Assembly (NCBI GenBank): GCA_041665265.1
Contig: JBAYJE010000001.1
Span: forward strand, 35,081-99,080
Length of the DNA stretch: 64,000 nucleotides
Source: Minisyncoccota bacterium
GTDB lineage: Bacteria > Patescibacteriota > Minisyncoccia > UBA6257 > GWB1-50-10
Reading direction: 5' to 3'
In this document: piece after piece, positions 35,927-61,284 of the stretch
How positions within the stretch are numbered: the first letter of the stretch is position 1
Layout of the letters: every line of letters starts with the position of its first letter
Made by a program: the position numbers and the translations under genes
Notes under the pieces: generated by a model
Database searches by the model: none
Told to the model about the DNA's origin: nothing
Seen by the model: the letters and a program-made list of their open reading frames with translations, nothing else

Positions 35927-36029
35927 ATAAAGATATTCTACCTTATTAAGGGAATCCTTTCTAGGAAGGATTTAGTCACTTATTGTCAGGTTGATTTCGC
36001 TTCGCGCATATTATACACTTGATTTTACT

Positions 36030-37292
36030 ATGCTTGATAGAAAAAGAATGTTGGCGTTTCTCACGCTTATCATCACCGTCTCAGTCGTTGCCGGTGTGTT
36101 TACGTATCAACCCCTATGGGAAAAGATAAGTTCTTTTCGACCTTGGAGTTTGGGACTTGACCTCGCAGGAGGAAGTCTTCTTACTTACGATATTGATGTA
36201 AGTAAGGTGAAAAGCGAAGACCGAGATTCGGTTATTCGTGGATTGCGCGACGTGATCGAGAAGCGCGTAAATCTTTTCGGTGTTTCAGAACCAAAGGTAT
36301 ACAACGAGAAGGTGGGGGATACGAATAGACTCGTGATTGAGCTCGCAGGTATTAAAGATATTGATAAAGCAATTGCGATGATTGGGGAAACACCCTTTCT
36401 CGAATTTCGTGAGGTGCAACAGGATGAGGGGTCAACAAGTACCGTTTCATTTATTCCTACGGAGTTGAATGGACGTTATGTGGTGAGTGCACAGGTAGGA
36501 CGAGATCAGACTGCAGGATTTCCTGAAATTGACTTCACCTTAAATGAAGAAGGTGCCGTTCTTTTTGAAAAAATTACTGGTAATAACATCGGGAAGGCAA
36601 TTTGTCTTTTCATTGATGGACAACCAATTATTCCTGATAGCTTCGAAGATAGTTGTCCAAGAGTGCAGGGAGTGATTTCTGGAGGAAAAGCACGCATTAC
36701 AGGACAATTTAGTATCACACGCGCGCAGCAAATCGTGGAACGTTTTAATGCGGGGGCACTTCCTGCTCCTATTACACTCGTGAATCAGCAGACAGTAGGT
36801 GCTGACTTCGGTAAAGATTCACTTGAGAAGGCGATTTTTGCGGGTGCGATAGGTATGATCGCGGTCATGATTTTTATGCTTGTCTACTATCGAACACTTG
36901 GCATCTTTGCTTCGTTTGCACTTCTTATCTATACCGCACTTGCTCTTGGTCTTTTCAAGCTTGTGCCTATTACTCTTACGCTTTCTGGTATTGCAGGATT
37001 CATCCTCTCTATTGGTATGGCGGTGGACGCAAACATCCTGGTCTATGAGCGTACGAAGGAAGAAATGAAGAAGGGCATTCCTCATGCGGCAGCTATTGAA
37101 GAGGGATTCAGACGCGCGTGGACTTCAATTCGCGATTCAAACGTTTCTACTATGATTACTTCCGCGGTACTTTATTTCCTTACCTCAAGCTTTGTGCAGG
37201 GATTTGCACTCACGCTTTTCTTGGGAGTGGTAATCAGTATGTTCAGCGCGATTACGACAACGCGCCTTATGTTAAGACTCTTCCTTAAATAA
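36030..37292 (+). CDS. secD: Protein translocase subunit SecD
   Basis: N-terminal TM, large periplasmic domain, C-terminal 5-TM SSD (GLDLAGGS..., FALTLFLGVVISMFSAIT). Start placed at MLDRKRM. The table ORF begins at 35991 and overlaps candidate promoter sequence. Confidence 0.85.
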   Translation: MLDRKRMLAFLTLIITVSVVAGVFTYQPLWEKISSFRPWSLGLDLAGGSLLTYDIDVSKVKSEDRDSVIRGLRDVIEKRVNLFGVSEPKVYNEKVGDTNRLVIELAGIKDIDKAIAMIGETPFLEFREVQQDEGSTSTVSFIPTELNGRYVVSAQVGRDQTAGFPEIDFTLNEEGAVLFEKITGNNIGKAICLFIDGQPIIPDSFEDSCPRVQGVISGGKARITGQFSITRAQQIVERFNAGALPAPITLVNQQTVGADFGKDSLEKAIFAGAIGMIAVMIFMLVYYRTLGIFASFALLIYTALALGLFKLVPITLTLSGIAGFILSIGMAVDANILVYERTKEEMKKGIPHAAAIEEGFRRAWTSIRDSNVSTMITSAVLYFLTSSFVQGFALTLFLGVVISMFSAITTTRLMLRLFLK

Positions 37293-37293
37293 T

Positions 37294-38205
37294 ATGAAAA
37301 ATTTTAATCTTATTAAGAATAGAAACTACTTCCTCGGATTTTCTATCTTCATGGTGCTTTTGAGTATTGTGCTTGTGGCAACACTCGGACTTCGTCAGGG
37401 GATTGATCTCCGCGGAGGAACTCAGTGGCAGGTATTGTTTACAAGTGGCACCGTGACCGACGAAATGGTACGAAAGGCAATTGCGCCCATTACCAAAGAA
37501 GGAGAAGGTTCAGTAAAACAATCGGGTGCTTCTGCTAATTCGTTTATTCTTCGTTTACCAAATTTAGATGAAGCACGACATTTGGAATATAGTGCCGCGC
37601 TTAAAACCATTGGTGATTTTAAGGAGGAGAATTTTTCGAGTATTGGTCCTACTATTGGAATAGAACTTCGTAATCGCGCTATCAAGGCAATTATCGCAGT
37701 GCTCTTTGGTATCTCACTTTATATTGCTTATGCATTTCGAAAAGTTTCAAAACCGATTTCTTCATGGAAATATGGTTTTGCAACACTCATTACACTTCTT
37801 CACGATGTGGTAATTCCGACAGGACTTCTCGCATTTCTTGGATGGTATAAAGGTATTGAAATTGATACGAACTTTATTGTGGCACTTCTTGTGGTAATGG
37901 GATTCTCGGTGCACGACACTATCGTGGTGTTCGATCGCATTCGTGAGAACATTCTCATTCATCGTGGGAAGAATCTTACTCTTGCGGAAATTATCAACTA
38001 CAGTGTACGTGAAACATTTGCTCGTTCAGTAAATACCACACTTACTCTTGTAATCATGCTTGTAGCACTTCTTGTGGTTGGTCCTTCATCGCTTTTTTAC
38101 TTTATCCTTACCATCCTTGTAGGAACGGTATTTGGTACGTATTCATCAATATTCCTTGCAAGTCCTATCTTATATCTCTGGGGTAGGGGAAATTCACAAT
38201 CTTAG
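37294..38205 (+). CDS. secF: Protein translocase subunit SecF
   Basis: GIDLRGGTQW motif and 6-TM SecF core. Confidence 0.85.
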   Translation: MKNFNLIKNRNYFLGFSIFMVLLSIVLVATLGLRQGIDLRGGTQWQVLFTSGTVTDEMVRKAIAPITKEGEGSVKQSGASANSFILRLPNLDEARHLEYSAALKTIGDFKEENFSSIGPTIGIELRNRAIKAIIAVLFGISLYIAYAFRKVSKPISSWKYGFATLITLLHDVVIPTGLLAFLGWYKGIEIDTNFIVALLVVMGFSVHDTIVVFDRIRENILIHRGKNLTLAEIINYSVRETFARSVNTTLTLVIMLVALLVVGPSSLFYFILTILVGTVFGTYSSIFLASPILYLWGRGNSQS

Positions 38206-38220
38206 TTGGTCACTCGAAAA

Positions 38221-38243
38221 CCCCTCAAGAATGAGGGGTTTTT
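38221..38243 (+). terminator. Intrinsic terminator after secF
   Basis: CCCCTCA-aga-ATGAGGGG plus TTTTT. Confidence 0.7.
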
Positions 38244-38300
38244 AATATGAGAACTACGAGTTTATTTGAAACACCACATTTCAGAGAAATGGGATAGTAC

Positions 38301-38329
38301 TTGACTTGACACCTTAAACAGGGTATATT
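38301..38329 (+). promoter_or_regulatory. Promoter TTGACT-17-TATATT for the HTH gene that heads the 38.3-45.7 kb block
   Basis: Read directly. Sits just after the secF terminator. Confidence 0.6.
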
Positions 38330-38352
38330 ACACTTTAAGTAAATAAAAGGTT

Positions 38353-39366
38353 ATGAAACATATCGACCAATTTATCAATGAGTTGTTTGCAGATTTCACC
38401 CCAAAGCAACGCAAAGTTGTTATGGGTCGCTTTGGTTTGAAAAACGGAAAACGCGCAACTCTTCAGGAGATTGGCGATGAGCTTGGTATTACGCGTGAGC
38501 GTGTGCGTCAAATTGAAGAGCAGATTATTGGTAAAATTCGCGACCGCGTACGCACTGATGCAAAGGACTTAATCGATATGGCAGTAGCTCATCTTACGAA
38601 GTGCGATGGCGTACGTCGTGATGATGAATTCATCCATGAGGTAATGGAAATGACTGATGATGCAGATGCAAAATATATTGAGCAGAAACTTCGCTTTGTG
38701 TTTCTTACCTCAGGTATTCCGTTCTATCAACGTGAAGACGATAATAGCAATGGTTTTTGGTATGTAAGTGATAGTGCCAAAAAGAAATTTGTTGAGTTCG
38801 TAAAACAGATGACACAGTTTTTCCGTGGTGGTGATAAGAATCAGATTCTCCGCGAGAAGACATATTTAGCATTATGTAAGGATCTTTCTTCAACTCATTT
38901 TCTTACTATCCCTAAGCACTTCGGATCAAACGTGTTTGGTGATGTAGGTCTTCGTGAGTGGGCAGAAATCGAACCAAAGACAATTCGCGACAAGGCATAT
39001 CTCGTTTTGAAAAAGAATGGGCAGCCTTTACACTTCGAACACGTTGCAAAGTTTATTAATGAGTACGGATTGGATAAGAAGCGTGCACACGTACAGACAG
39101 TACATAACGAACTTATTAAAGATCATCGCTTTGTACTCGTGGGACGTGGCATGTACGGCCTTCAGGAGCACGGATTTGAATCCGGTACCGTGCGAGAAGT
39201 GATTACCAGTCTCTTGAAAAAGAACGGACCACTTTCCTCAACGGAAGTAGTAACTCTCGTGAATAAACAGCGCTTCTTGAAAGAAAATACCATCCTTTTG
39301 AGTCTTCAAAATAGAAAGCATTTTAAGAGACTTGAGACTGGAAAATATCACGTTCGAGAAGCATAA
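38353..39366 (+). CDS. Sigma-70 region-4-like HTH plus HARE-HTH domain protein (putative DNA-binding regulator)
   Basis: N-terminal RATLQEIGDELGITRERVRQIEEQIIGKIR is a sigma region 4.2 HTH. C-terminal KAYLVLKKNGQPLHFEHVAKFI...DHRFVLVGRGMYGLQEH matches the HARE-HTH/RpoE-delta N-domain pattern. Own TTGACT-17-TATATT promoter. Confidence 0.55.
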   Translation: MKHIDQFINELFADFTPKQRKVVMGRFGLKNGKRATLQEIGDELGITRERVRQIEEQIIGKIRDRVRTDAKDLIDMAVAHLTKCDGVRRDDEFIHEVMEMTDDADAKYIEQKLRFVFLTSGIPFYQREDDNSNGFWYVSDSAKKKFVEFVKQMTQFFRGGDKNQILREKTYLALCKDLSSTHFLTIPKHFGSNVFGDVGLREWAEIEPKTIRDKAYLVLKKNGQPLHFEHVAKFINEYGLDKKRAHVQTVHNELIKDHRFVLVGRGMYGLQEHGFESGTVREVITSLLKKNGPLSSTEVVTLVNKQRFLKENTILLSLQNRKHFKRLETGKYHVREA

Positions 39367-39373
39367 GACAAAA

Positions 39374-39405
39374 ACATCCTCCGCATAGCGCGGGGGATGT
39401 TTTTT
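39374..39405 (+). terminator. Intrinsic terminator with GCATAGCGC core after the HTH gene
   Basis: ACATCCTCCGC-atag-CGCGGGGGATGT plus TTTTTT. Confidence 0.65.
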
Positions 39406-39439
39406 CATTGTCACATTTGATGTAGAATGAACGTATTAC

Positions 39440-40852
39440 ATGTTTAAGGATTTTCGCAAGCAATTCGAGGAAGTTATAGTTGGGTTGCTAAGGCAATGGG
39501 AAGTTTGGATTTTTCTCCTTATTGCGGGGGCTCTTATTACCGTCCCTTTTTATTCTATGGCGGAACTTTGGGCAATTGTGCAACGTTTCATTTCTTACAC
39601 GTGGTGGTTTTGGACATTTTTTATATTGTTTATTCCTTTTCGTGCACTTTTTCTCTATTGGCGTCAGCAGGAATATAAGAAGAAGGAGGCAGCCGACGAG
39701 AAGTATGTATTACTTGAACTTCGTATTCCTCGGGAGCTCCAGAAAGGCCCCCTTTCTATGGAGCAGGTACTTCTTTCTCTTCACTCACTCGGAAATAGCC
39801 CTGGGAGTTTTCATGAGAAATATATTGATGGCGAGGTGCCACTTTGGTTTTCTGCGGAAATAGTGAGTATTGGTGGGCAGGTACATATTTACATGCGTGT
39901 GCCGAAGAAAAACAGGAATCTCGTTGAAGCAACCTTTTTTTCGAGCTACGCAGACGTAGAGGTGGTAGAGGTAAAAGATTATATGAAAGATTTACCCGCA
40001 ACTACCGCAGAGCTTTATGCACAAGAGAGAGATATGTGGGGGACTGAGATGAAACTTGCAATTGACGCAGCCTATCCGATTAAAACTTACCAGGCATTTG
40101 AAAGTGGAGGAGAAGGACAACTCGATCCAATTTCAACATTCCTTGAAGTTCTTGGAAAATTAAAAAAAGAAGAAGTAGCATGCATTCAAATTGTTCTCTC
40201 ACCTGCAGATAAAAAGTGGAGTGAGAAATGGCGGAGTGTTTTGGAAAAGCTTCGTGAACCAGAACTTTTTGAGGCAGGAGAAGAGAAGGTAACCATTCCA
40301 CGAACTCCAGGACAAAACGAACTTGCGAACGCAATCGAGACAAAACTTTCTAAAGTTGCTTTTAATACTCTTATTCGAATTTTGTATATTGCACCAAAGA
40401 CAGTTTTTAAAGAAGGTTCGGGATTTGCACGAAGTGGTATTATAGGTGCATTTAACCAATATAGTGCGCCAAATTTGAATTCGTTTAAGCAAAACAATCC
40501 TATGGCGACAGGGGTAAAACCATGGAAGTGGAGTGAGCCGTTTCGCACAGGAATTAATAAAAAAGGAGAATATCGCAAACAGCGATTGCTTTATTCATTC
40601 CGTTTTCGTGAGTGGCCTCCCGAGACATTTACTGCGCGTCTTTTTACTTCATATATGTCAAATTCGAATTTTGATACGCTCTCATTTGAAATGTCAGTAG
40701 ATGAACTTGCAAGTGTCTTTCATTTGCCAACATCAATTGTGCTTACAGCACCACATATTAAGCGTGTAGAGAGTAAGAAGGCTGGCCCTCCTTCGGGAAT
40801 TGCCATTTTTGGAGAAGAGTCGCACTTAGAACGATTTGAAGAAAAGGAATAA
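39440..40852 (+). CDS. Membrane protein, two N-terminal TM helices plus a roughly 390-aa soluble domain (unknown family)
   Basis: Hydrophobic segments at residues 22-42 and 52-72. No nucleotide-binding motif. Separated from the next gene by 7 nt. Confidence 0.5.
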   Translation: MFKDFRKQFEEVIVGLLRQWEVWIFLLIAGALITVPFYSMAELWAIVQRFISYTWWFWTFFILFIPFRALFLYWRQQEYKKKEAADEKYVLLELRIPRELQKGPLSMEQVLLSLHSLGNSPGSFHEKYIDGEVPLWFSAEIVSIGGQVHIYMRVPKKNRNLVEATFFSSYADVEVVEVKDYMKDLPATTAELYAQERDMWGTEMKLAIDAAYPIKTYQAFESGGEGQLDPISTFLEVLGKLKKEEVACIQIVLSPADKKWSEKWRSVLEKLREPELFEAGEEKVTIPRTPGQNELANAIETKLSKVAFNTLIRILYIAPKTVFKEGSGFARSGIIGAFNQYSAPNLNSFKQNNPMATGVKPWKWSEPFRTGINKKGEYRKQRLLYSFRFREWPPETFTARLFTSYMSNSNFDTLSFEMSVDELASVFHLPTSIVLTAPHIKRVESKKAGPPSGIAIFGEESHLERFEEKE

Positions 40853-40858
40853 TAATTT

Positions 40859-41410
40859 ATGGATCCTGCAATTTTTCTTACATCAATTTCTACTTTCATC
40901 TCTCACTTATTAGTAAGTGGGCCATGGCTGCGCATATACACCATTGCGCATTTTATTTTTTTGATACTTGATACCGCATTAGTAGTGGGCATTATTCTTT
41001 TCACAATACATGCCTATGCGACACGTAGAAAAATTGATATTCATGCAGCGCCCCCAAGTGTTGCACAAATACTTAAAAAGCCTGGCCTACAAGCAGCATA
41101 TAAAGAGTCTTGGGAAAAGATTCTTGCGCGTGCTGTGAGTTCACCACCCGATTCGTATCGCGCCGCACTTATGGATGCCGACGCATTAATTGATCAGTTA
41201 TTACAGGATGCTGGATTTGTGGGAACAAACATGGCAGAGCGATTGGGAAGATTAAACAATATGGGACTGAGAAGTTTGAATGCAGTATTTCGTGCACATA
41301 GAATTCGTAATGAGCTTGCGCATTCATCTGACGTAATTCTTTTGGAAAAAGAAATGCGCGAGGTCATCAATCTTTATGAAAAGTTTTTGCACGAAGTGAA
41401 GATTCTCTAA
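40859..41410 (+). CDS. Small 2-TM membrane protein with alpha-helical domain carrying an Rx4H (HEPN-like) motif
   Basis: TM helices at residues 10-30 and 35-60. C-terminal helical bundle with FRAHRIRNELAHSSD (R-N-x3-H). Confidence 0.45.
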   Translation: MDPAIFLTSISTFISHLLVSGPWLRIYTIAHFIFLILDTALVVGIILFTIHAYATRRKIDIHAAPPSVAQILKKPGLQAAYKESWEKILARAVSSPPDSYRAALMDADALIDQLLQDAGFVGTNMAERLGRLNNMGLRSLNAVFRAHRIRNELAHSSDVILLEKEMREVINLYEKFLHEVKIL

Positions 41411-41417
41411 TTCGTTA

Positions 41418-42773
41418 ATGGCAAAAGAAGGGAAATTACAAATTATCAAATATGCACCACCTCCTCCCGAACTTCCAATTCTTGGAAAATCGAATTCGGC
41501 GGAGGTTTCGTATATTGGGCGCACGAACTATGCGGCAGGTCTTGAGGAGAAGAAATTTATTTTTGGCCTAAAGCGTATTGATAGGCGACATCACCTTCAT
41601 ATTATTGGCAAAGGAGGAGTAGGGAAATCAAAATTTCTTGAGTTACTTATCAGGCAGGACATTGCGGCGGGGAAGGGGGTATGCGTGATTGATCCACACG
41701 GTGATTTGACCGATGCTATTCTTGATTTCATTCCTGAGTCAAGAGTGAAGGACGTCTGCTTTATCGATCCTTCGGATGTTGCACATCCACTTTTATTTAA
41801 TCCTCTTGTGGGAATGGATAAGGCCTTTCACCATCAGCTTACGCAAGGACTTATTGAGGTTATGAAAAAGCAGTTCATTGATGCATGGACACCACGTCTT
41901 GAACATATTTTTCGCTTTACTATACTCGCACTTCTTGATTACCCACATCCCACGATGCGGGGAATGATTTCAATGCTTACCGATGAAGAATATCGGGTAA
42001 AAGTCATTCCTTTTATTGAGGATGAGATGATAAAGCGGTTTTGGGTTACTGAATTTCCAGAATGGGCAAAGAAATTCGATACTGAGGCAATCATTCCACT
42101 TGTAAGTAAACTTAGTCAATTTTTCTCACACCCTCTTTTGCGGAGTATTTTTTCACAAGAGGAGAATAAGATCAATCTTGATGTATTGGTGAATGAGAAC
42201 GCAATTATTTTGGTGAACCTTGCAAAGGGAAAAATTGGTGAAGAGAATTCAAGTTTCCTTGGTTCACTTCTTTTAATGCGAATTCGTCAGGTGGGTATGG
42301 CACGTGGCACAATGCCAGAATGGGCGCGTAAAGATTTCTATATTTATATAGACGAGTTCCAGAATTTTATTACTGAAACGTTTGAACAATTTCTTTCTGA
42401 AGCAAGGAAGTTTGGTCTTTGTCTTACTGTTTCACATCAGTATTTAGGACAATTAGAAGAGCGCGTGCAAGCGGCGCTTCTTGCGAGTGTAGGAAGTATG
42501 GTGGTATTTCGTGTGGGCGGGGAGGATGCGGAAACATTAGAAGGAGAGATGACCCCCATTTTTAAAGCGAAAGATATGATTAACCTTGGGCTTCAAGAAT
42601 TTTATATTAAAATGACCATTGATGGAGAAACATGCGATCCTTTTTCTGCAGACACCTTAAAAGTGCTTCAACCGACTCATTTCTCACATCGAGACGAAAT
42701 TATTAATGCTTCGCGCATGAGATTCGCAGTGGGGGCAGTGGTATCACACAACGAAGAAACAGCAAAAAAATAA
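41418..42773 (+). CDS. FtsK/HerA-superfamily P-loop ATPase, VirD4/TraG/TraD (type IV coupling protein)-like, no membrane domain
   Basis: RRHHLHIIGKGGVGKSKFL (Walker A) followed by VCVIDPHGDL. Walker B FYIYIDEFQNF. C-terminal ARKFGLCLTVSHQYLGQLEE...GSMVVFRVGGEDAETLE matches the TraG-D_C/TrwB pattern. Confidence 0.65.
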   Translation: MAKEGKLQIIKYAPPPPELPILGKSNSAEVSYIGRTNYAAGLEEKKFIFGLKRIDRRHHLHIIGKGGVGKSKFLELLIRQDIAAGKGVCVIDPHGDLTDAILDFIPESRVKDVCFIDPSDVAHPLLFNPLVGMDKAFHHQLTQGLIEVMKKQFIDAWTPRLEHIFRFTILALLDYPHPTMRGMISMLTDEEYRVKVIPFIEDEMIKRFWVTEFPEWAKKFDTEAIIPLVSKLSQFFSHPLLRSIFSQEENKINLDVLVNENAIILVNLAKGKIGEENSSFLGSLLLMRIRQVGMARGTMPEWARKDFYIYIDEFQNFITETFEQFLSEARKFGLCLTVSHQYLGQLEERVQAALLASVGSMVVFRVGGEDAETLEGEMTPIFKAKDMINLGLQEFYIKMTIDGETCDPFSADTLKVLQPTHFSHRDEIINASRMRFAVGAVVSHNEETAKK

Positions 42774-42805
42774 TCTCACCGGATGCAGTGGTATAATGGA
42801 AGTAA

Positions 42806-43963
42806 ATGAAGCGCGTTCAAAAAGCTATTGCAAATGTATTGCATCGATTGCGAGGAAGCACACTTCTTGTTGAACAGATAAATGGAGTGTATAAAATATC
42901 GCGAGCCTATGATGCCGAGACAAATCGTAGTGCGCATATTATCAAGCAAAAATTTGTCCGTAATTTGAATGAATTAAGACCATCGCTTTTTGGCCTTCGA
43001 ATGTTTGGAAGTATTATTCTTGCGCTTGATTCACATCATGCGACCACAATTGAAAGCGGTGTGAAACTCGTGAGAGCAAATCCTCAAGAACCCATTGATG
43101 AGGGTGAATTAGACGCCCTTCTTTTTCATGGGTTTTGGAATTTTTTAAATCGTTACCGTGCATTTGCTTCAAAAAAATTGGGAATAAATGAACTCGATCT
43201 TATTGTGGCAAATGTTGCAGTAAACGGGGTTCGTATTGGTACTCACACGGTATTTAATCCGCTCGATTTTTCTGGCCGTGAATTATTTTTGAAATTTCGA
43301 GGTACTCTAATTGCGCGTGATTTTCTTCCTTCTATTACCCATCTCAGTAAATTTGTGCGTGGCAATATCATCGTAGTGGAACGAGGCTCCATTCTTATGG
43401 AGGCGATAGGAGAGCCTGTGGTGTTTCTTGAAATAGAAGATGAGAAGACGTCTGTATTTGTAATAGGAAATGAAGAAAGTAGTTATGTGGGGGAATGTGC
43501 GTGGGGGGCGAAAAATATCACGCGTGCACTTGGAAAACTTTTTGGTGTGCATATGCACATTGTTCCAGCACTCTTGAACCGCTATACTAATAATCAGATT
43601 TCAGAAAAGATGCGACATATTATTGTGCGCACCGCACGCGAAGAGATGAGAAATCTCATAGAACATCTTGAACCAATAGTACCGGCGGGGCACATGAAAA
43701 AGTCTGCAATTCGCTATGTACTTTCATCGTCGCATCCAATTCCTGAATCATTATTTGCATGCGGAGAGCTTCGGTCGGCATCATTTAAGATTCCAAAAAA
43801 TGTATCATTAGGAGTGAAGAGAGAATTGAATGAATCAGAAGAAGAGGGAACACACATCGATCAGTCACTCGCATTATTTGCTTTTCCTTATCTCCACCCT
43901 CAATACATGCCGGTGAATCAGTTACTTCAGCGGAGAGTAAAATGGCTTATGCCACATGCCTAA
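42806..43963 (+). CDS. Hypothetical protein, possibly degenerate actin-fold (PilM/FtsA-like) without phosphate-1 motif
   Basis: The second-half pattern VFVIGNEESSYVGECAWGAKNITRALGKLFGV...SAIRYVLSSS resembles actin-like ATPase subdomains. The N-terminal Gly-rich loop is absent. Confidence 0.4.
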   Translation: MKRVQKAIANVLHRLRGSTLLVEQINGVYKISRAYDAETNRSAHIIKQKFVRNLNELRPSLFGLRMFGSIILALDSHHATTIESGVKLVRANPQEPIDEGELDALLFHGFWNFLNRYRAFASKKLGINELDLIVANVAVNGVRIGTHTVFNPLDFSGRELFLKFRGTLIARDFLPSITHLSKFVRGNIIVVERGSILMEAIGEPVVFLEIEDEKTSVFVIGNEESSYVGECAWGAKNITRALGKLFGVHMHIVPALLNRYTNNQISEKMRHIIVRTAREEMRNLIEHLEPIVPAGHMKKSAIRYVLSSSHPIPESLFACGELRSASFKIPKNVSLGVKRELNESEEEGTHIDQSLALFAFPYLHPQYMPVNQLLQRRVKWLMPHA

Positions 43964-43971
43964 TATAACGT

Positions 43972-44075
43972 ATGAATCCCGTTAGAGTTTTACCAGCGGA
44001 GTATAAAGGAGATGGTAATATGAATACGATGAGTATCAAAAATAAAAAAGTAATATAAAAAAATTCTAACGGGAT
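43972..44075 (+). promoter_or_regulatory. Leader element B: motif ATGAATCCCGTTAGA, 11-bp inverted repeat (43976..43986 / 44065..44075) bracketing an SD-equipped 12-codon mini-ORF. Right arm contains the ATG of gene 44074.
   Basis: Read directly. AAGGAGA SD 7 nt before the ATG at 44020. Confidence 0.45.
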
Positions 44076-45687
44076 GAAAAAAGAACGAAAAATCTTTCTT
44101 GATAGATCTGAAGGACTTGATGCGGCCGTGGATAAAATTATCCATATGCCTGCTGACACTATTATTCTAAATATTCCTAAGGGCTCTGTACTTGGACTTT
44201 CCCCAAATAATTTTCGTGTGTTGAAACGAGAGAGTGAGACTGCGGGAAAAATATTCACTGTGGAATCGGTGGATGATGATATTCTTGATCTTGCAAAACT
44301 CGCAAAAATTGAAGCAATAAATCCAATATTAAGTATGCGAGAGCGGGCGGTTTCGGATATTGTAAGAAATGTTCCCTCATCGAGAAAAGAAATTCCCAAA
44401 AAAGAAGCCGCCGTTGCTGTTAAGAAGGAGGTGTTAGGAAAAGAAGAGATTCCCATCAAGAGCGAGATTTATAAAGAAATACCAGTACATAAACCGAAAG
44501 AGGAGATACACGAAGAAGAAATATCCTACGTAAATTCCTCACGAGGAAAAAGAGGATGGCTCTTGTCGCTTTCTATTTTTGCACTCGTCGTCATTGCGGG
44601 AGGATGGTACGCATATCGCGAGGCACCTCGTGTCGCGGTGGAAATAACTCTTAAGAAGGCTGAGATTCCTGTAAATCTTACTGTGCGGGTGAGCAAGGAT
44701 TATCACGAAGTAGGTGTAGAGGATAATGCAATTCTCCTTCCAGGGGAGCTTCTTGAAGCAAAGAGTAATCTCTCAATGGATTTTCCTGCGCAAGGAACGG
44801 AAGTAGTGACTGCACGTGCAAAAGGAAAACTTACTGTGTATAACGCATTTAGTTCAAGTCCACAGGGGTTGGTGGCATCTACGCGCTTCGAGTCTTCTGA
44901 GGGGAAGATATTTCGTCTTGATAAGCCAGTAATTATTCCTGGGGCAAAAGTTGTTGCGGGGAAAATGGCCCCCTCATCCATTGAAGTGAGTGTGACTGCG
45001 GACAATGCGGGACCAGAATATAATAATCCGAAGGAAGGGAGATGGACCATTCCAGGATTTAAAAATACTGCTAAATTTAGTGGGTTTTATGCAGAGGCAT
45101 CTAGTGTTATAGACGGTGGCTCATCGGGGGAGCGTGCGGTAGTATCTGCAGATGATCTTGCGAGTGCAGAGGAGAAGGTAGGTGATGCACTTCGCGCAGC
45201 TCTTGAGAGTCAGATGCTTCTTTTGAAAAATGAAGTATTTAAAACAGTTGATGGAAATACAGAATTTACTATTTTGAAAAAAGAGCCACAGCCAAGTGCT
45301 ACCGATAAAAAAATATTTGGAATGTTTATGGAGGGAAGATTGAAACAGCTTGTATTTGAAGAGAAGGCACTTAATGAGGCGCTCTCAAAAGTTGCAGGAA
45401 AGGGTCGTACTGGAGAGCGAGTGGCTGAGATGAAAGTGTCGTATGGAACGCCGATATTTGATTTTGAAAAGGGGACAATGGTGTTGAATGCAACGGGGAC
45501 GATTGTGTTTGTGGCGGATGTTGATGCAGAAGGGTTTAAAACGAGTATTCTTGGTGCGGACGAAACTGCAGTAAGAACGGCGGTGTGGGCGTTACCTGGA
45601 ATTGAAACTGCAAAGGCATCTTTTAGTCCATTTTGGGTTCATCGTGCACCTACAAATCCAGCGAAGGTAAAAGTGACTATTCAGTAG
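44074..45687 (+). CDS. Bitopic membrane protein: about 170-aa cytoplasmic domain, E/K-rich linker, one TM, about 350-aa extracytoplasmic domain
   Basis: Single hydrophobic helix WLLSLSIFALVVIAGGWYAY. No SD. Start codon embedded in an 11-bp inverted-repeat arm. Confidence 0.5.
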   Translation: MKKERKIFLDRSEGLDAAVDKIIHMPADTIILNIPKGSVLGLSPNNFRVLKRESETAGKIFTVESVDDDILDLAKLAKIEAINPILSMRERAVSDIVRNVPSSRKEIPKKEAAVAVKKEVLGKEEIPIKSEIYKEIPVHKPKEEIHEEEISYVNSSRGKRGWLLSLSIFALVVIAGGWYAYREAPRVAVEITLKKAEIPVNLTVRVSKDYHEVGVEDNAILLPGELLEAKSNLSMDFPAQGTEVVTARAKGKLTVYNAFSSSPQGLVASTRFESSEGKIFRLDKPVIIPGAKVVAGKMAPSSIEVSVTADNAGPEYNNPKEGRWTIPGFKNTAKFSGFYAEASSVIDGGSSGERAVVSADDLASAEEKVGDALRAALESQMLLLKNEVFKTVDGNTEFTILKKEPQPSATDKKIFGMFMEGRLKQLVFEEKALNEALSKVAGKGRTGERVAEMKVSYGTPIFDFEKGTMVLNATGTIVFVADVDAEGFKTSILGADETAVRTAVWALPGIETAKASFSPFWVHRAPTNPAKVKVTIQ

Positions 45688-45731
45688 AGAGATCGCGCTC
45701 TGGGGCAGGACAGCCTATTAGCAGGTAGGAG

Positions 45732-45760
45732 TTGACTTTTTTGGCCTTCCTCCATATAAT
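45732..45760 (+). promoter_or_regulatory. Promoter TTGACT-17-TATAAT for the infA-rpmJ-rpsM... operon
   Basis: Read directly. 31 nt before the infA ATG. Confidence 0.65.
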
Positions 45761-45791
45761 TGAATTCGCTTATCGTTTTTATTACCCATAA

Positions 45792-46010
45792 ATGAGCAAA
45801 AAAGATAGTTTTATAAAACAGGACGGCATAGTGCAAGAAGCATTGCCAGGCTTACTCTTCCGCGTGTCGCTGGAAGGAGAGCGAGAGGTCCTTGCCCATT
45901 TGGGAGGAAAAATGAAGTTGAATAGGATTCGTGTGATCCCAGGAGATAGAGTAACAGTCGAGATGACTACGTACGATGAGCGCCGAGGGCGCATTGTGCG
46001 GAGGTTGTAA
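45792..46010 (+). CDS. infA: Translation initiation factor IF-1
   Basis: S1-like OB fold GIVQEALPGLLFRVSLEGE..VLAHLGGKMKLNRIRVIPGDRV. Own TTGACT-17-TATAAT promoter. Confidence 0.9.
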   Translation: MSKKDSFIKQDGIVQEALPGLLFRVSLEGEREVLAHLGGKMKLNRIRVIPGDRVTVEMTTYDERRGRIVRRL

Positions 46011-46062: not shown

Positions 46063-46176
46063 ATGAAGGTAAGAGCATCTGTAAAAAAAATCTGTTTGAA
46101 ATGCAAGACTATCCGTCGCAAGGGAAGGGTCTATGTCATTTGTGAAAATAAAAAGCATAAACAACGACAAGGATAA
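46063..46176 (+). CDS. rpmJ: 50S ribosomal protein L36
   Basis: 37-aa [40 protein letters not shown] (C-x2-C...C-x4-H zinc ribbon). Below the ORF-track length cut-off. Confidence 0.85.
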
Positions 46177-52037: not shown

Positions 52038-53042
52038 ATGTTTACACGTAAAATTGGTATTGATCTTGGCACCACAAATACACTCGTCTTTCTTCCTGAG
52101 CGCGGTATTGTGATAAATGAACCAACGGTGGTAGCACTTCGCAAACCGGATAATACGGTGCTTGCAGTAGGTGCAGAAGCAAAAGAAATGGTGGGGCGCA
52201 CTCCCGATGACATCGTAACGTATCGGCCACTTAAAGATGGTGTGATTGCGGAATATTATATTACACAAGCGATGCTTAAATATTTTATTACAAAAAGTAT
52301 TGGCACGTTTAATGTGATTCGTCCCGAGGTGGTTATTTCGGTTCCTGCAGGTATTACTTCGACAGAACATCGCGCGGTAATGAACGCCGCAAAAGAGGCA
52401 GGTGCTCGCGAAGTATATTTGGTAAAAGAACCACTTCTTGCATCACTCGGTGCGGGTATCCCGATTCACTCCGCAGAAGGAAATATGATTGTAAACATCG
52501 GTGGTGGAACTACGGAGGTAGCAGTTATCTCGCTTGGTGGCATTGTTACGTGGGCGAGTTTACGTGTTGCAGGAAACCGTTTTGATAACGCAATCAGCGA
52601 GTACATTAAAAAGAAGTATGCGCTTGCGATTGGTGAAAATACTGCTGAAAACATCAAAATTACTATTGGTACCGCAATGCAGAATCGCAATAAGATGGAG
52701 ATGAAAATTCGCGGAAGAGACCTCCATTCAGGACTTCCTAAAGATATGGTAATTAATTCGAATGAAGTTGCTGAGGCAATTAATGGGCATCTCGTTGATA
52801 TTATGAATGCAGTCCAATCTGTGTTTAATGTGACACCGCCTGAGCTCGCTGCCGATATTATGGAGAAAGGCATCATTCTTTCAGGAGGAAGTTCACAGCT
52901 TCGTGATCTTGAGGAATTTATTAAGCGTTCGCTTGGAGTTCCTGCGTATGTTGCAGAGGAGGCTATTCTTTGTGTAGCAAAGGGTACCGCGACTATTCTT
53001 AATCATTTGGATGTGTATAAACGAACACTCCTTAGGCGCTAA
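52038..53042 (+). CDS. mreB: Rod-shape-determining protein MreB
   Basis: IGIDLGTTNTLVF phosphate-1 motif. Actin fold. 334 aa. Confidence 0.9.
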   Translation: MFTRKIGIDLGTTNTLVFLPERGIVINEPTVVALRKPDNTVLAVGAEAKEMVGRTPDDIVTYRPLKDGVIAEYYITQAMLKYFITKSIGTFNVIRPEVVISVPAGITSTEHRAVMNAAKEAGAREVYLVKEPLLASLGAGIPIHSAEGNMIVNIGGGTTEVAVISLGGIVTWASLRVAGNRFDNAISEYIKKKYALAIGENTAENIKITIGTAMQNRNKMEMKIRGRDLHSGLPKDMVINSNEVAEAINGHLVDIMNAVQSVFNVTPPELAADIMEKGIILSGGSSQLRDLEEFIKRSLGVPAYVAEEAILCVAKGTATILNHLDVYKRTLLRR

Positions 53043-57189: not shown

Positions 57190-58215
57190 ATGATATTCAA
57201 GAAAATCATCGGTATCGATTTAGGCACAGACACCACACAAATATATCTTAAGGGTTCTGGTATTGTGGTAAACGAACCGACAATCGTAGCTTTCAATAAT
57301 AGGACTGACCACGTAGTAGCAGTAGGAACGGAGGCAAAGAAAATGCTTTCACGTACTCCTGCACATATCACTGCTATTCGTCCGATGAGTCACGGGGTGA
57401 TTGCTGATTTCGATATGGTAAAGGAAATGTTACAGCATTTTTTGAAGAATGAACGTATCCCATGGTCATGGGTAACTGAAACAGTGGTAAGTGTTCCTAC
57501 TAATCTTACTGAGGTGGAAAGAAAGTCTGTAGAAGATTTACTTCATGAGGTAGGTGCAAACAAGGTCTATCTCATTGAACAGCCACTTGCTGCTGCATTT
57601 GGAAGTCGTCTTGATATTAATATGCCTTCCGCATTTCTTGTGGTAGATATTGGTGCGGGCACGACTGACATGGCAATCATTTCAATGAACGGTATCGTTG
57701 TTTCAAAGCGTCTTAAGATTGCAGGAGACTTTTTAAATAATGAAATTATAAAAGGGGTTCGTGATGAGTTACGGTTACACATTGGAGAACCAACCGCAGA
57801 GGAGATTAAAATTGCAGTGGGATCAGCTATGGCAACGGGTGAAAAGCTCGAACTCACTATTCGTGGGCGCGATGTTGGAAATGGACTCCCACGCGAAATT
57901 ACGATTCGTGACACACAGGTGCGTATGTGGCTTGTGCGCCCCTTAAAGCTCGTGGTAGAGGCCCTCAAGGACCTTATTGAGTCAGCACCACCAGAACTTG
58001 TAGGTGATATTTATAAGAATGGTATGTATGTGTGTGGGGGAGGAAGTCTCTTGCGCGGCATCGCGCAGGTTATCGAAAAAGAGATTGGGGTGAATGTACA
58101 AATTGTGGAAGATCCGCTTACCTGTGTTGCCCGTGGTTCAGGACTTGTGTGTGAGCATTTCGACGAGCACAAACACTTACTGAATAATTTTTCACGACTG
58201 AAGCTTGATGATTAG
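57190..58215 (+). CDS. mreB: MreB paralogue (actin-like rod-shape protein) heading an mreBCD-pbp2 cluster
   Basis: IGIDLGTDTTQIY phosphate-1, GGGS phosphate-2 region. 341 aa. Confidence 0.8.
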   Translation: MIFKKIIGIDLGTDTTQIYLKGSGIVVNEPTIVAFNNRTDHVVAVGTEAKKMLSRTPAHITAIRPMSHGVIADFDMVKEMLQHFLKNERIPWSWVTETVVSVPTNLTEVERKSVEDLLHEVGANKVYLIEQPLAAAFGSRLDINMPSAFLVVDIGAGTTDMAIISMNGIVVSKRLKIAGDFLNNEIIKGVRDELRLHIGEPTAEEIKIAVGSAMATGEKLELTIRGRDVGNGLPREITIRDTQVRMWLVRPLKLVVEALKDLIESAPPELVGDIYKNGMYVCGGGSLLRGIAQVIEKEIGVNVQIVEDPLTCVARGSGLVCEHFDEHKHLLNNFSRLKLDD

Positions 58216-58229
58216 CCTTTTTCCTTGCC

Positions 58230-58928
58230 ATGAGAACATTCAAAGGATTTTTACGGGCAATATTTCTTGTTATATGTTTTGTCATTCTTGTTTTCTTTCG
58301 TAGGGAAGCGAGCGATTTTTTTTCATACTCACGGAATTTCGTCGTGCATTTTTTTGATTCCGCGTATAGCTATCAAGCATTCAATGATCTTACATTAGAA
58401 AAAGCATCTCTTGAGCGTGAATTGACTACTATAAAAAACGCTTCACAAACGGAAGGGAAAGAAAACAATCTTATATATGCAGAGGTATACTCACGCTACC
58501 CTTTTAATGATAAAAGTTCTCTTATAATAAATAAGGGATCAGCGGATGGCATTGCAGTAGGCATGCCAGTACTTGCAGCTCCCTATATTTTATTGGGAAA
58601 AGTAAAAGCAGTAAAAACAACACAAAGCGAGGTAGAAACTATTTTTAGTCCAGATTGGAAGACGAGTGCATTTGTGGGGGCAACGCGTGTAAAAGCGATT
58701 GTGCAAGGTAGTACTCCTCCGCGTCTCGAACTTGTTCCTAAGGATGCGGTACTTGTAGAGGGTGATGCTGCTACGAATAGTGCTCCCGAATTTCCTTTAG
58801 GGCTTCTTGTGGGAACAGTAACTACACTTCATGATGACGAGAAGAAGGTGTGGCTTACCTCTGATATTGAAACACCATATCGCATTGAAGACTTGAGATC
58901 AGTACTCGTGCTCACTCATTTTCCTTAA
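58230..58928 (+). CDS. mreC: Rod-shape-determining protein MreC
   Basis: N-terminal TM, coiled-coil (LEKASLERELTTIKN), C-terminal beta domains with GMPVLA...LGKVKAV pattern. Position between mreB and mreD. Confidence 0.6.
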   Translation: MRTFKGFLRAIFLVICFVILVFFRREASDFFSYSRNFVVHFFDSAYSYQAFNDLTLEKASLERELTTIKNASQTEGKENNLIYAEVYSRYPFNDKSSLIINKGSADGIAVGMPVLAAPYILLGKVKAVKTTQSEVETIFSPDWKTSAFVGATRVKAIVQGSTPPRLELVPKDAVLVEGDAATNSAPEFPLGLLVGTVTTLHDDEKKVWLTSDIETPYRIEDLRSVLVLTHFP

Positions 58929-58934
58929 TTATTT

Positions 58935-59408
58935 ATGCAACTCGCAAATCGTATTGCTGTTCTCTTTCTTCTTTCTGTATTCTTTTTTTTCCTCCAACAA
59001 GGAGGATTCCTCTCAATAGGTGGTGTAATTCCTAATCTTATTCTTCTTCTTTTTCTCGCATATATTTTCATTGGTGTGGTGTCTCTTGCCCTTTTTTTCT
59101 TTGGTATTGCTTTTATCGTATTAACCTTAGTGTGGGTTCCTTTTTGGCTTCCCGAGATACTAATTCTTCTTCTCACTCTCTTGTGTATCATCCTTCTCCG
59201 TCGTTTTTTTACCGGAAATCCTCATATTGATTTCTTTATAAGCATTGTAGTCGGAACATTTCTTTTCTACGGACTTCTTTCCCTTTTCAGCATTTCTGTT
59301 TTTTCATTTGGTAGTATCACGCGAGAGCTTGTATACTCGGGGGTAATAGGCGTGTGTCTATGGATGGCTGTAAAGCGCTTTGGGCAGCGCGCACGCCATA
59401 TAAAGTAA
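58935..59408 (+). CDS. mreD: Putative MreD (5-TM membrane protein)
   Basis: Small polytopic protein between mreC and PBP2. Assignment rests on conserved gene order. Confidence 0.4.
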   Translation: MQLANRIAVLFLLSVFFFFLQQGGFLSIGGVIPNLILLLFLAYIFIGVVSLALFFFGIAFIVLTLVWVPFWLPEILILLLTLLCIILLRRFFTGNPHIDFFISIVVGTFLFYGLLSLFSISVFSFGSITRELVYSGVIGVCLWMAVKRFGQRARHIK

Positions 59409-59415
59409 GAATGTT

Positions 59416-61284
59416 ATGAAACGGGGAACATCTATTCAAATTGAAGACGTGCTTGCAAATCAAGTGGGGGAGGAGAACCTTATTGAGGTCCCAGTTGCTA
59501 CTCGCGCATTTTATGCGTTACTCATAGTGGGGTCACTTATTATTGGTACAATACTGGTGCAATTTTTAACTATCGGAGTAATAAAGAAAGATGCATATGT
59601 TGCACGTGCACTGGATAATGTGAGTGATACAAAGGTAAAGCCCGCACCACGTGGAATTATTTTTGATCGGTTTGAAAAGGCACTCGTAAAGAATGAACCT
59701 TCTTTTAATGTTTTTTTACTTCCCAAGCTCTTACCTGAGGGTCCAGAGGCTCGCAACCTTGCGATTGAGCGCATCGCAACTATTATCAACGTGGACACTG
59801 CGACGCTTGTAGAGAAACTTAAGAAAAAGGATTGGAATTTGAGTGATAAATTATTTCTTATAAATGATGTAAGTCAGGAACAGCTTGTAGAACTTACCTC
59901 ATCTGAGGGACTTGGCGTTCGTATTGAAGACGGGTTTAAACGAGAACACGCGGTTCCATTCGCATTTTCACAACTTATCGGATACACAGGTCTTGTGGGA
60001 GAGAGCGACCTTGCAGAGAATGAGAGTCTTGTGCTTGATGATCAAATTGGACGGAGTGGACTTGAAGACTATTATGATTCCTATCTTCGTGGTATCAATG
60101 GAAAGGAAGTAACATTTCGAAATGCAAAAGGTGTTATGCAGGGTGAGCAGGTGGAAAAGGAGTCAAAGCCAGGGAAAAGTATAAAAACATTTATTGATAA
60201 AGAATTTCAGGAATATTTTTATTCTCGTTTTAAGGAGGGTCTTACCGCACTCGGGCGTGATGTTGGTGTTGGTATTGCAATGAATCCTGAAAATGGAGAA
60301 GTGCTTGCACTTGTGGGAACTCCAGGATTTGAAACAGGAAAAATTGCGGCAGCATTGAATGACCCACGGAAACCACTTTTTAATCGTGCGGTAAGTGGAG
60401 TATATAATCCTGGTTCAACTATTAAACCACTCGTAGCAACGGGAGCACTTACCGATGGAATGATAGTACCTGAAAAAGAAATTTTTTCTCCAGGGTACAT
60501 AGAGTTGCCTAATCCATATAGTCCTGACAAGCCAAGCCGTTTCCTTGATTGGAAACCGCAAGGATGGGTTGATGTGTATGCGGCACTTGCGAGATCGAGT
60601 AATGTTTATTTTTATGAAGTAGGTGGAGGATTTGAAGCTCAAAAAGGACTCGGGATTATGGGACTTAATAAATGGTGGGAACTTTTTGGTCTTTCGCGGA
60701 AAACAGAAATAGATCTTCCGAATGAGAAGGTTGGATTTTTACCAACCCCTGATTGGAAGGAAAAGAAAACCGGACAGCCGTGGCGCATCGGAGACACTTA
60801 CAACGTTTCTATCGGACAGGGAGATTTTTCGATTACTCCAATTGAGTTAGTAAATTATATTGCGGCAATCGCAAATGGAGGTACTTTTTATAGGCCGCGT
60901 ATATTAGATGTAATTACCGACGGATCAGGAAAGGAGATGCTTCGGAGTTACCCAAGTACTCTTTTCGATATTCGTACTATGATTGCAAAAGCCGTTCCTG
61001 AGGTGCAAAAAGGTATGCGTGACGGAGTTCAAAAGTCATACGGTACCGCAAATCTTCTTGCGAGTCTTCCTTTTGAGTCGGCAGCAAAGACAGGAACAGC
61101 CCAGATTGAAAATAATTCGAAAACAAATGCCTTTTTCGTGGGATACGCACCTTATAAGAATCCTAAGATTGTAATTCTTGTACTTATCGAAAATTCTCGT
61201 GAAGGGAGTCATAATACAATCCCCATAGCAAAAGATGTGCTCCTGTGGTACTATAACAATCGGTTAAAAGGACAGGATAAATAG
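59416..61284 (+). CDS. mrdA: Penicillin-binding protein 2 (elongasome transpeptidase)
   Basis: N-terminal TM, PBP dimerisation domain, transpeptidase motifs STIKP, SSN, KTGTA. Confidence 0.85.
   Translation: MKRGTSIQIEDVLANQVGEENLIEVPVATRAFYALLIVGSLIIGTILVQFLTIGVIKKDAYVARALDNVSDTKVKPAPRGIIFDRFEKALVKNEPSFNVFLLPKLLPEGPEARNLAIERIATIINVDTATLVEKLKKKDWNLSDKLFLINDVSQEQLVELTSSEGLGVRIEDGFKREHAVPFAFSQLIGYTGLVGESDLAENESLVLDDQIGRSGLEDYYDSYLRGINGKEVTFRNAKGVMQGEQVEKESKPGKSIKTFIDKEFQEYFYSRFKEGLTALGRDVGVGIAMNPENGEVLALVGTPGFETGKIAAALNDPRKPLFNRAVSGVYNPGSTIKPLVATGALTDGMIVPEKEIFSPGYIELPNPYSPDKPSRFLDWKPQGWVDVYAALARSSNVYFYEVGGGFEAQKGLGIMGLNKWWELFGLSRKTEIDLPNEKVGFLPTPDWKEKKTGQPWRIGDTYNVSIGQGDFSITPIELVNYIAAIANGGTFYRPRILDVITDGSGKEMLRSYPSTLFDIRTMIAKAVPEVQKGMRDGVQKSYGTANLLASLPFESAAKTGTAQIENNSKTNAFFVGYAPYKNPKIVILVLIENSREGSHNTIPIAKDVLLWYYNNRLKGQDK

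Follow-up and report, generated by a model that had tools for sequence, protein, structure and literature searches.

A probable two-piece type IV coupling-protein-like ATPase in a conserved chromosomal module of Patescibacteria

The stretch of DNA analysed here, 64,000 nucleotides of a Minisyncoccota bacterium genome (contig JBAYJE010000001.1, positions 35,081 to 99,080; hereafter the window, within which coordinates are counted), carries between secD-secF and infA six open reading frames (ORFs) on the forward strand at 38353..45687, which we label p1 to p6 (Table 1). An earlier note on this DNA, written from its sequence, had described the six as a single block built around an ATPase related to type IV coupling proteins that has no transmembrane (TM) segment of its own. 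All six co-directional ORFs are indeed present, and our analysis centres on two of them, the ATPase p4 and the membrane protein p2, and on the chromosomal module in which they are found throughout Patescibacteria.

The ATPase p4 and its proposed membrane partner p2

The predicted motor half, p4, contains an FtsK/HerA-superfamily nucleotide-binding domain with both Walker motifs intact: GKGGVGKS (residue 64) for A and YIYIDE (residue 308) for B. No TM or hydrophobic segment was found in it, and the N-terminal TM anchor that a coupling protein carries in the same polypeptide lies instead on p2, two genes upstream. Against curated models, p4 scores above the cut-off for TrwB_AAD_bind (29.7 against 20.5) and for DUF87 and falls below it for TraG-D_C (21.9 against 22) and T4SS-DNA_transf (13.3 against 20.1), while the NCBIfam TraD models return 38-42 bits against cut-offs of 366-648. 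VirB4 models match it poorly (TIGR00929, E = 0.021; AAA_10, E = 0.047), less well than coupling-protein models, and CagE_TrbE_VirB hits neither p2 nor p4. FtsK and TcpA scored ~13, and no ParA/MinD protein was seen. These results support placing p4 with the type IV coupling proteins, as a relative that has no TM segment, and not with ParA/MinD, which the earlier note had given as an example of an unrelated family that would refute its reading. Proteins matching p4 are also encoded by the large Bacillus phages G (gp156), 0305phi8-36 (ORF201), CP-51 and Shanette.

In the proposed partner, p2, a basic stretch separates two N-terminal TM segments (22-38 and 56-72) from a large domain; the helices and the domain had been recognised from the sequence, and the domain can now be named, since p2 homologues carry Pfam PF26449 (DUF8128). 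Because the basic stretch follows the two hydrophobic helices, the large domain is predicted to lie in the cytoplasm. Profile searches with p2 against PDB sequences and NCBIfam gave no match. Its AlphaFold2 model is confident (predicted local distance difference test, 87; predicted template modelling score, 0.81), and the top 12 Foldseek matches to that model were all chains of TrwK, a protein whose N-terminal domain is a separate unit spanning residues 15-400 (PMC9259494). Because this domain is separate and p2 has no P-loop, we assign the match to it, and the soluble domain of p2 would accordingly adopt the fold of the VirB4 N-terminal domain. The fold of p4 is that of the VirB4 C-domain, so that p2 and p4 together reproduce the VirB4-type layout of an N-terminal domain followed by a RecA-like C-terminal ATPase, although VirB4 sequence models do not recognise them and no VirB3, VirB6 or VirB8 homologue was found in the window or in the examined neighbourhoods.

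The two proteins also occur as one. In eight Patescibacteria loci DUF8128 and the ATPase are fused in a polypeptide of ~640-760 amino acids (L057:9176-11377 is one example), the ATPase beginning right where the DUF8128 match stops, and the 824-position profile phrog_5156 matches both p2 (positions 78-202) and p4 (positions 387-774) and appears, from these matches, to represent a DUF8128-ATPase fusion family. A further set of ATPases of 600-780 amino acids beside p4 was considered as p2 fusions and set aside; they represent a paralogue whose C terminus bears a zinc finger.

Related arrangements are found in conjugative coupling proteins of Gram-positive plasmids, whose ATPase domains are homologous to p4 with 23-31% identity and which have a DUF8128-like N-terminal part as well, either fused or encoded by a separate upstream gene. 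On the Embleya plasmid NZ_CP108778, an 812-amino-acid protein combines a TM helix, a DUF8128-like region and an ATPase, which is the layout of p2 and p4 joined, and its gene lies in a cluster with the order TrbL-like, PrgI, VirB4-like, coupling protein, Replic_Relax and NlpC/P60. The N-terminal extension of this protein matches DUF8128 below significance by hhalign (E = 0.014), and its assignment rests on two colinear pieces of a local hidden Markov model match totalling 21 bits. On the B. subtilis plasmid CP121709, a 272-amino-acid DUF8128-like protein (hhalign 96.4%, E = 1.3e-9) is encoded directly 5' of a 412-amino-acid p4-like ATPase, 3' of which lie Replic_Relax, TcpC and VirB4 (AAA_10, 2e-116). 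The S. aureus plasmid pWBG707 encodes an 863-amino-acid homologue in the same gene order, the N-terminal part of which matches DUF8128 weakly (E = 0.056, below significance). All three plasmids thus place a homologue in the coupling-protein position, each next to a Replic_Relax relaxase and with a separate VirB4-like ATPase in the same cluster. Taken together, the data support the view that p2 and p4 constitute a type IV coupling-protein-like ATPase in two pieces, in which p2 is a VirB4-N-domain-like module and more than an anchor. A split coupling protein had been suggested before, with both neighbouring membrane proteins, p2 and p3, supplying the anchor; the eight fused loci, phrog_5156, the Embleya protein and the B. 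subtilis pair bear this out for p2, and p3 drops out of the proposal for the reasons given below.

Conservation of the module and its neighbours

We examined synteny in 80 fetched ATPase loci (L001-L080), in the locus of the closest relative (L081) and in two p6 loci (L082 and L083). The p4 family comprises more than 7,000 homologues, with identities of 65-70% across Jorgensen-, Brenner-, Lipton-, Wolfe- and Nomurabacteria and of 42-52% in Uhr-, Peregrini-, Gottesman- and Falkowbacteria, and the mean column identity in our ATPase family alignment (A2) is 76%. A p2 gene is present in 29 of the 80 loci, with the ATPase within two genes downstream in 27 of these and secD-secF directly upstream in 19. 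The order secDF-p1-p2-(p3)-p4 is kept down to 42% ATPase identity, for example in the distant loci L077 and L071, the latter with secA upstream too, and the other neighbours that we checked are all housekeeping genes (dnaK/dnaJ, SecA, P-type ATPase, NrdD, EF-P, AlaRS, MnmA, ComEC and FtsA/FtsZ). Among the scanned neighbours of related loci there was no relaxase or mating-pair gene. We conclude that p1-p4 (38353-42773) is an ancient, vertically inherited chromosomal module.

Several contigs in the sample have titles that do not fit their content. L064, L066, L067, L071 and L072-L074, titled Alphaproteobacteria, Gammaproteobacteria or Pacearchaeota, hold Patescibacteria-type genes (p1-p2-ATPase, secDF, FtsA/FtsZ), which suggests mis-binning or mislabelling, and many "uncultured Candidatus Saccharibacteria" titles look generic.

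Two genes of the module are confined to part of its range. p1 contains both domains previously read from its sequence, sigma-70 region 4 (Pfam Sigma70_r4, 8.2e-14) and HARE-HTH (1.2e-7), and lies between secF and p2 in 24 of the 29 p2 loci. p3, found in 17 of the 29, has a strong TM segment (32-48) and a cytoplasmic domain, so its description as a membrane protein holds. That description had overlooked a conserved motif, AHRxRNxLxH, of the HEPN type R-N-x3-H: R150, N151 and H155 are invariant in a 20-sequence alignment (A6), and the histidine is missing from one of 20 sequences, a homologue in L009, in a separate homologue alignment. p3 thus has the Rx4-6H motif that HEPN proteins carry in an all-alpha domain, and among 20 members of its family some yield weak but recurrent HEPN hits (HEPN_Swt1 in four, the best at 0.002; Hypoth_Ymh in three; RiboL-PSP-HEPN in one). 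A p3 profile search against PDB sequences returned no match. Both p1 and p3 are missing from many lineages that retain p2 and p4. Accordingly, p1 is an accessory or regulator confined to some lineages, and p3, judged by its motif, is a putative membrane-anchored HEPN-like protein that is accessory in a subset of lineages. A role for p3 as part of the ATPase was rejected, and one as a second membrane anchor is not supported, as p3 is found neither in the fusions nor in many of the lineages.

The presence of a HEPN motif raises the question of anti-phage defence or abortive infection, in which p4 would be a HerA/Mad8-like sensor or motor, p3 a membrane HEPN RNase effector and p1 a helix-turn-helix regulator. 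The earlier note had held that the block could equally be a defence module; we consider this improbable. p4 does match mad8 in PADLOC (1.2e-13), gives weak HerA hits and resembles DndH, the cysteine-rich K580 paralogues described below are diversified, and region 4 of p1 resembles MzaA, but the last resemblance is limited to generic sigma region 4. PADLOC returned no complete system and only partial single-protein matches, namely mad8 for p4, MzaA region 4 for p1 and a weak CARF_HEPN match (1e-3) for p3. Moreover, the ATPase family is near-universal in the phylum, strongly conserved at the identities given above (65-70%; 76% by mean column) and fixed in chromosomal position among housekeeping genes, and the putative effector and regulator are the very genes that many p2- and p4-bearing lineages do without.

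The remaining two genes of the block have a different history. p5 had been described as a degenerate actin-fold-like protein, and profile comparison now shows it to be FtsA-like: hhalign against an FtsA set gives 94% probability (E = 1.4e-7, 223 columns), and BLASTP matches it at 2e-10 to an FtsA-like protein of L040 that is itself matched by Pfam FtsA (1.3e-13). For p5, Pfam returned nothing, and the canonical phosphate-1 and phosphate-2 nucleotide-binding motifs were not found: the glycine-rich FtsA loop INLGSSTTS aligns to LEIEDEKTS, and the N-terminal DIGS region of FtsA falls outside the aligned range. p6 is a bitopic membrane protein, as previously described, with one TM segment (161-177), a weak match to a GlxA/baseplate-J-like beta-barrel and homologues (n = 98) that are all from Patescibacteria. 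The p6 family lies directly 5' of infA in every context that we examined, including the window (44074-46010).

The earlier note had treated the six genes as a unit, and they might form one envelope-spanning machine with p5 and p6 as partners resembling PilM/PilN of pilus systems. The genes are all co-directional, no terminator was found 3' of p4 (in a scan that overlooked the secF terminator), the same six-gene order recurs in the closest relative, L081, and L040 has p5-like and p6-like genes side by side. This order, with p5 and p6 after p4, occurs only in L081, however, and L040 is the only one of the 80 ATPase loci in which p5/p6-like genes were seen, five genes from the ATPase and next to rpsM. 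In L082 (6001-7892) and L083 (6001-7886), p6 is directly 5' of infA-rpsM and preceded by dnaG-rpoD-DUF5667-alaS-Sua5, with no ATPase nearby, and in three genomes hundreds of genes separate p2 from p6, judging by locus tags. A six-gene machine is therefore very improbable; p5 and p6 are neighbours, not components, of the ATPase module.

As the synteny on the secDF side and that on the infA side are kept separately, the block is two conserved syntenic groups that abut in this lineage, with no insertion. The contrary view, that the block was inserted between secDF and the infA operon as the remnant of a conjugative or integrative element, is hardly credible. It draws on the use of this ATPase family by conjugative plasmids and on the terminator and promoter that each flank has of its own, but it is already contradicted by the recurrence of the same secDF junction in deeply divergent lineages and by the pairing of p6 with infA. 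GC content is flat at ~41% across the region, there are no flanking repeats around the block, scans of the window found no tRNA genes and no Rfam matches, and the 64-kb window contains no integrase, no relaxase and no type IV secretion system (T4SS) or channel gene, in line with the earlier remark that relaxase, integrase and VirB4 are missing. None of the marks of a mobile element, whether integrase or relaxase, flanking repeats, compositional shift or variable presence, was thus found.

Signals between the genes suggest that there may be more than one transcription unit. The secF terminator and a separate promoter on one flank, and the infA promoter on the other, are present as had been claimed (Table 1); our automatic terminator scan overlooked the obvious secF terminator, which was read from the sequence, and the negatives of that scan need caution. 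The spacers from p1 to p6, previously given as 7-33 nucleotides, measure 73, 6, 7, 32 and 110 nucleotides. Within the longest but one, TGTAGAAT lies between the p1 hairpin and p2, ~10 nucleotides before the p2 ATG, and no Shine-Dalgarno sequence is present there (39373-39440). On these signals, p2-p4 may form a separate and possibly leaderless transcript, or the p1-p2 hairpin may act as an attenuator. The p5-p6 spacer is predicted to fold into a stable stem (-25.3 kcal/mol, z = -4.46) that takes in the start codon of p6, with 16-nucleotide arms of 94% complementarity (43976-44075) and, in the loop, a Shine-Dalgarno sequence and a mini-ORF of 12 codons (44020-44058). The stem is not conserved, as L081 has a 2-nucleotide gap at that junction. 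Given the strong terminator-like p1-p2 hairpin and the p5-p6 stem, co-transcription of all six genes is not evident.

Table 1. Features of the p1-p6 block and its flanks (window coordinates)
Feature	Coordinates	Strand	Description
secD + secF	35991..38205	+	Kept upstream neighbours of the module, functional membership not implied; secF ends at 38205
secF intrinsic terminator	38221..38248	+	CCCCTCA-AGAA-TGAGGGG then TTTTT; 7-bp G+C-rich stem, 4-nucleotide loop
Two overlapping sigma-70-like promoter matches 5' of p1	38301..38334	+	TTGACT-17-TATATT and TTGACA-17-TACACT, 10/12 positions each
p1	38353..39366	+	337 amino acids; DNA-binding, sigma-70 region 4 + HARE-HTH
Terminator-like hairpin, p1-p2 spacer	39373..39410	+	CATCCTCCGC-atagc-GCGGGGGATG then TTTTTT
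p2	39440..40852	+	470 amino acids; Pfam DUF8128, proposed membrane-anchored half of split ATPase; locus tag WCV80_00335
p3	40859..41410	+	183 amino acids; putative membrane-anchored HEPN-like protein
p4	41418..42773	+	451 amino acids; TM-less P-loop ATPase of the VirB4/VirD4/HerA clade, proposed motor half
p5	42806..43963	+	385 amino acids; degenerate FtsA-like actin-fold protein, adjacent gene, not co-conserved with p4
p6	44074..45687	+	537 amino acids; bitopic membrane protein, infA-side synteny; locus tag WCV80_00355
Promoter-like site 5' of infA	45732..45760		11/12 positions matched
infA	45792..46010		3' of the block
rpmJ	46063..46176		3' of infA; rpsM next

Further along the window, at 52038-53042 and 57190-61284, are two genes that are MreB-like in their N-terminal sequences, followed by small membrane proteins and a 622-amino-acid protein in an mreBCD-pbp2-like arrangement. 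For the first MreB-like gene, and for that one only, the L081 counterpart is confirmed as MreB_Mbl. Elongation machinery of this kind in an ultra-small bacterium would be noteworthy.

A putative coupling role and its alternatives

Among described systems, several come close to the p2/p4 pair. For the conjugative plasmid pIP501, it has been proposed that TraI, a membrane protein encoded immediately upstream, brings the soluble VirD4-like ATPase TraJ to the membrane (PMC4981023). By description, this is the same logic as that of p2 and p4, but the pIP501 pair belongs to a 15-gene transfer operon with a relaxase, unlike the window module. Another is VirB3-VirB4 (TrwM/TrwK of R388), in which the alpha-2 and alpha-3 helices of VirB3 are TM segments and VirB3 wraps the VirB4 N-terminal domain (PMC9259494). 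Here the p2 domain would correspond to the VirB4 N-domain fold, p4 to the C-domain fold and the p2 helices to the position of VirB3, with the differences that p2/p4 has no VirB6 or VirB8 nearby and that on plasmids a bona fide VirB4 coexists with the p4-like protein. The Gram-positive plasmid proteins adjoin Replic_Relax, TcpC/VirB8-like, VirB4 and cell-wall hydrolase genes, whereas the window module is chromosomal, lies in housekeeping surroundings and has no linkage to relaxase and mating-pair-formation genes. Membership of the archaeal Ced importer family, an analogy drawn in the earlier note, was rejected, as the NCBIfam CedD model reaches 28 bits against a cut-off of 600 and does so in the Walker A region only; no separate search for a CedA partner was made.

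We propose, with a probability of roughly 60%, that p1-p4 is a vertically inherited Patescibacteria module built around a two-piece coupling-protein-like ATPase that probably serves a T4SS encoded elsewhere. In this model p2 would tether a ring of p4, probably a hexamer, at the cytoplasmic face of the membrane, in parallel with the anchoring of VirB4 by VirB3 and the VirB4 N-domain and with the proposed recruitment of TraJ by TraI. ATP hydrolysis by p4 would then provide the energy for recruiting a macromolecular substrate to a membrane channel or threading it in, p1 and p3 would be accessories in some lineages, and p5 and p6 would stand outside the machine. The most likely channel would be the Patescibacteria T4SS, encoded elsewhere and with no coupling protein in its own cluster. 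This T4SS is derived from monoderm conjugation machinery (PMC12102498, PMC10633639), and the Southlakia T4SS cluster has no recognisable coupling protein (PMC10633639). Because it is conjugation-derived and has no coupling protein in its own cluster, the T4SS is the most economical partner.

The census of Quinonero-Coronel et al. 2025 (PMC12102498) bears directly on this proposal. It reports 5,713 VirD4-like homologues in 2,918 of 3,035 Patescibacteria genomes (~96%), of which 148 are near virB4, and leaves their function open; VirB4 itself is counted in 2,417 of the 3,035. These orphan homologues are almost certainly the same gene family as p4, and their frequency of about two copies per genome, rarely near virB4, is consistent with p4 and its zinc-finger paralogue. 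The passages of the paper that were consulted give counts, and no description of a DUF8128 partner, HEPN protein, secDF synteny or K580 arrays was found in them.

Several observations weigh against the proposed T4SS partnership and the two-piece ATPase on which it is built. Neither the 64-kb window nor the examined neighbourhoods contain a gene for a T4SS, a relaxase or a channel, and the T4SS link is one that we infer. The fold by itself does not separate the modelled p4 from the VirB4 C-domain, VirD4, DndH or HerA, and the placement of p2 with the TrwK N-domain depends on p2 having no P-loop. Many Nomurabacteria loci have p4 with no DUF8128 gene within 10 kb, and the Patescibacteria fusions have no TM hairpin, so membrane anchoring is not universal. 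Finally, as reported in PMC12102498, the coupling-protein homologue is non-essential in Southlakia where the T4SS is essential, and such homologues are found in more genomes (2,918) than VirB4 (2,417). The non-essentiality and the wider spread make a T4SS-independent role possible.

Such a role might be a Patescibacteria-specific uptake or export function of the p2/p4 motor, for instance DNA uptake with ComEC or the handling of a protein family that we name K580. K580 proteins are soluble and cysteine-rich, of ~570 amino acids; each end bears treble-clef/CxxC zinc fingers, and the C-terminal tail is conserved. The family counts 101 copies in 42 of the 80 loci, with tandem arrays of up to nine beside the ATPases (for example, L010:11579-20228, and throughout loci L059 and L060). 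Searches of Pfam, NCBIfam and PDB returned no match for K580, no signal peptide or TM segment was found in its members, and the window contains none. The second ATPase paralogue, of ~600-780 amino acids and with ~42% identity to p4, has at its C terminus a CxxC-x17-CxxC zinc finger (zf_Tbcl_2 / TIGR04272) of the same type as in K580 and often lies beside p4 or directly after DUF8128 (L001:8921-10759, L022:2339-4498, L040:3576-5327). We regard K580 proteins as candidate substrates or adaptors. A T4SS-independent motor, a real contender though an unlikely one, would account for the dispensability and wide distribution reported in PMC12102498, for the K580 arrays flanking the ATPases and the shared finger type, and for the position of ComEC a few genes downstream in L001 and L003 and of SecA/SecDF upstream. 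The ComEC and Sec positions may, however, be plain conserved housekeeping order, the module is linked to no channel protein, K580 has neither a signal peptide nor a representative in the window, and the nearest relatives found beyond Patescibacteria are plainly coupling proteins of conjugation.

A broader conjecture, and a rather doubtful one, is that DUF8128/p4, the zinc-finger paralogue and the K580 arrays make up a Patescibacteria-wide T4SS-independent macromolecule-handling system that descends from a conjugative coupling protein and has a membrane-anchored HEPN RNase as accessory in some lineages. If true, that system would have been turned to housekeeping or host interaction, such as the delivery of diversified effectors or nucleic-acid uptake.

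That Patescibacteria have orphan homologues of coupling proteins, and that a coupling protein can consist of two proteins, is already published. A full-text literature search for DUF8128 returned no papers, and we did not find in the searchable literature the DUF8128 partner with its VirB4-like fold, the presence of DUF8128 in coupling proteins of plasmids, the link to K580, the HEPN accessory or the secDF synteny. Patescibacteria, which live as epibionts, account for much of bacterial diversity. Coupling-protein-like genes are present in ~96% of their genomes (PMC12102498), and the only species open to genetics so far cannot do without its T4SS, the cluster of which has no coupling protein (PMC10633639). 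With p2, these orphan ATPases would gain a dedicated membrane-anchored partner, a DUF8128 protein with the predicted fold of the VirB4 N-domain, and so become a defined two-protein unit. The occurrence of DUF8128 in Gram-positive plasmid coupling proteins further suggests a class of coupling proteins that has kept an N-domain in common with VirB4, a point of relevance to the divergence of the two T4SS ATPases.

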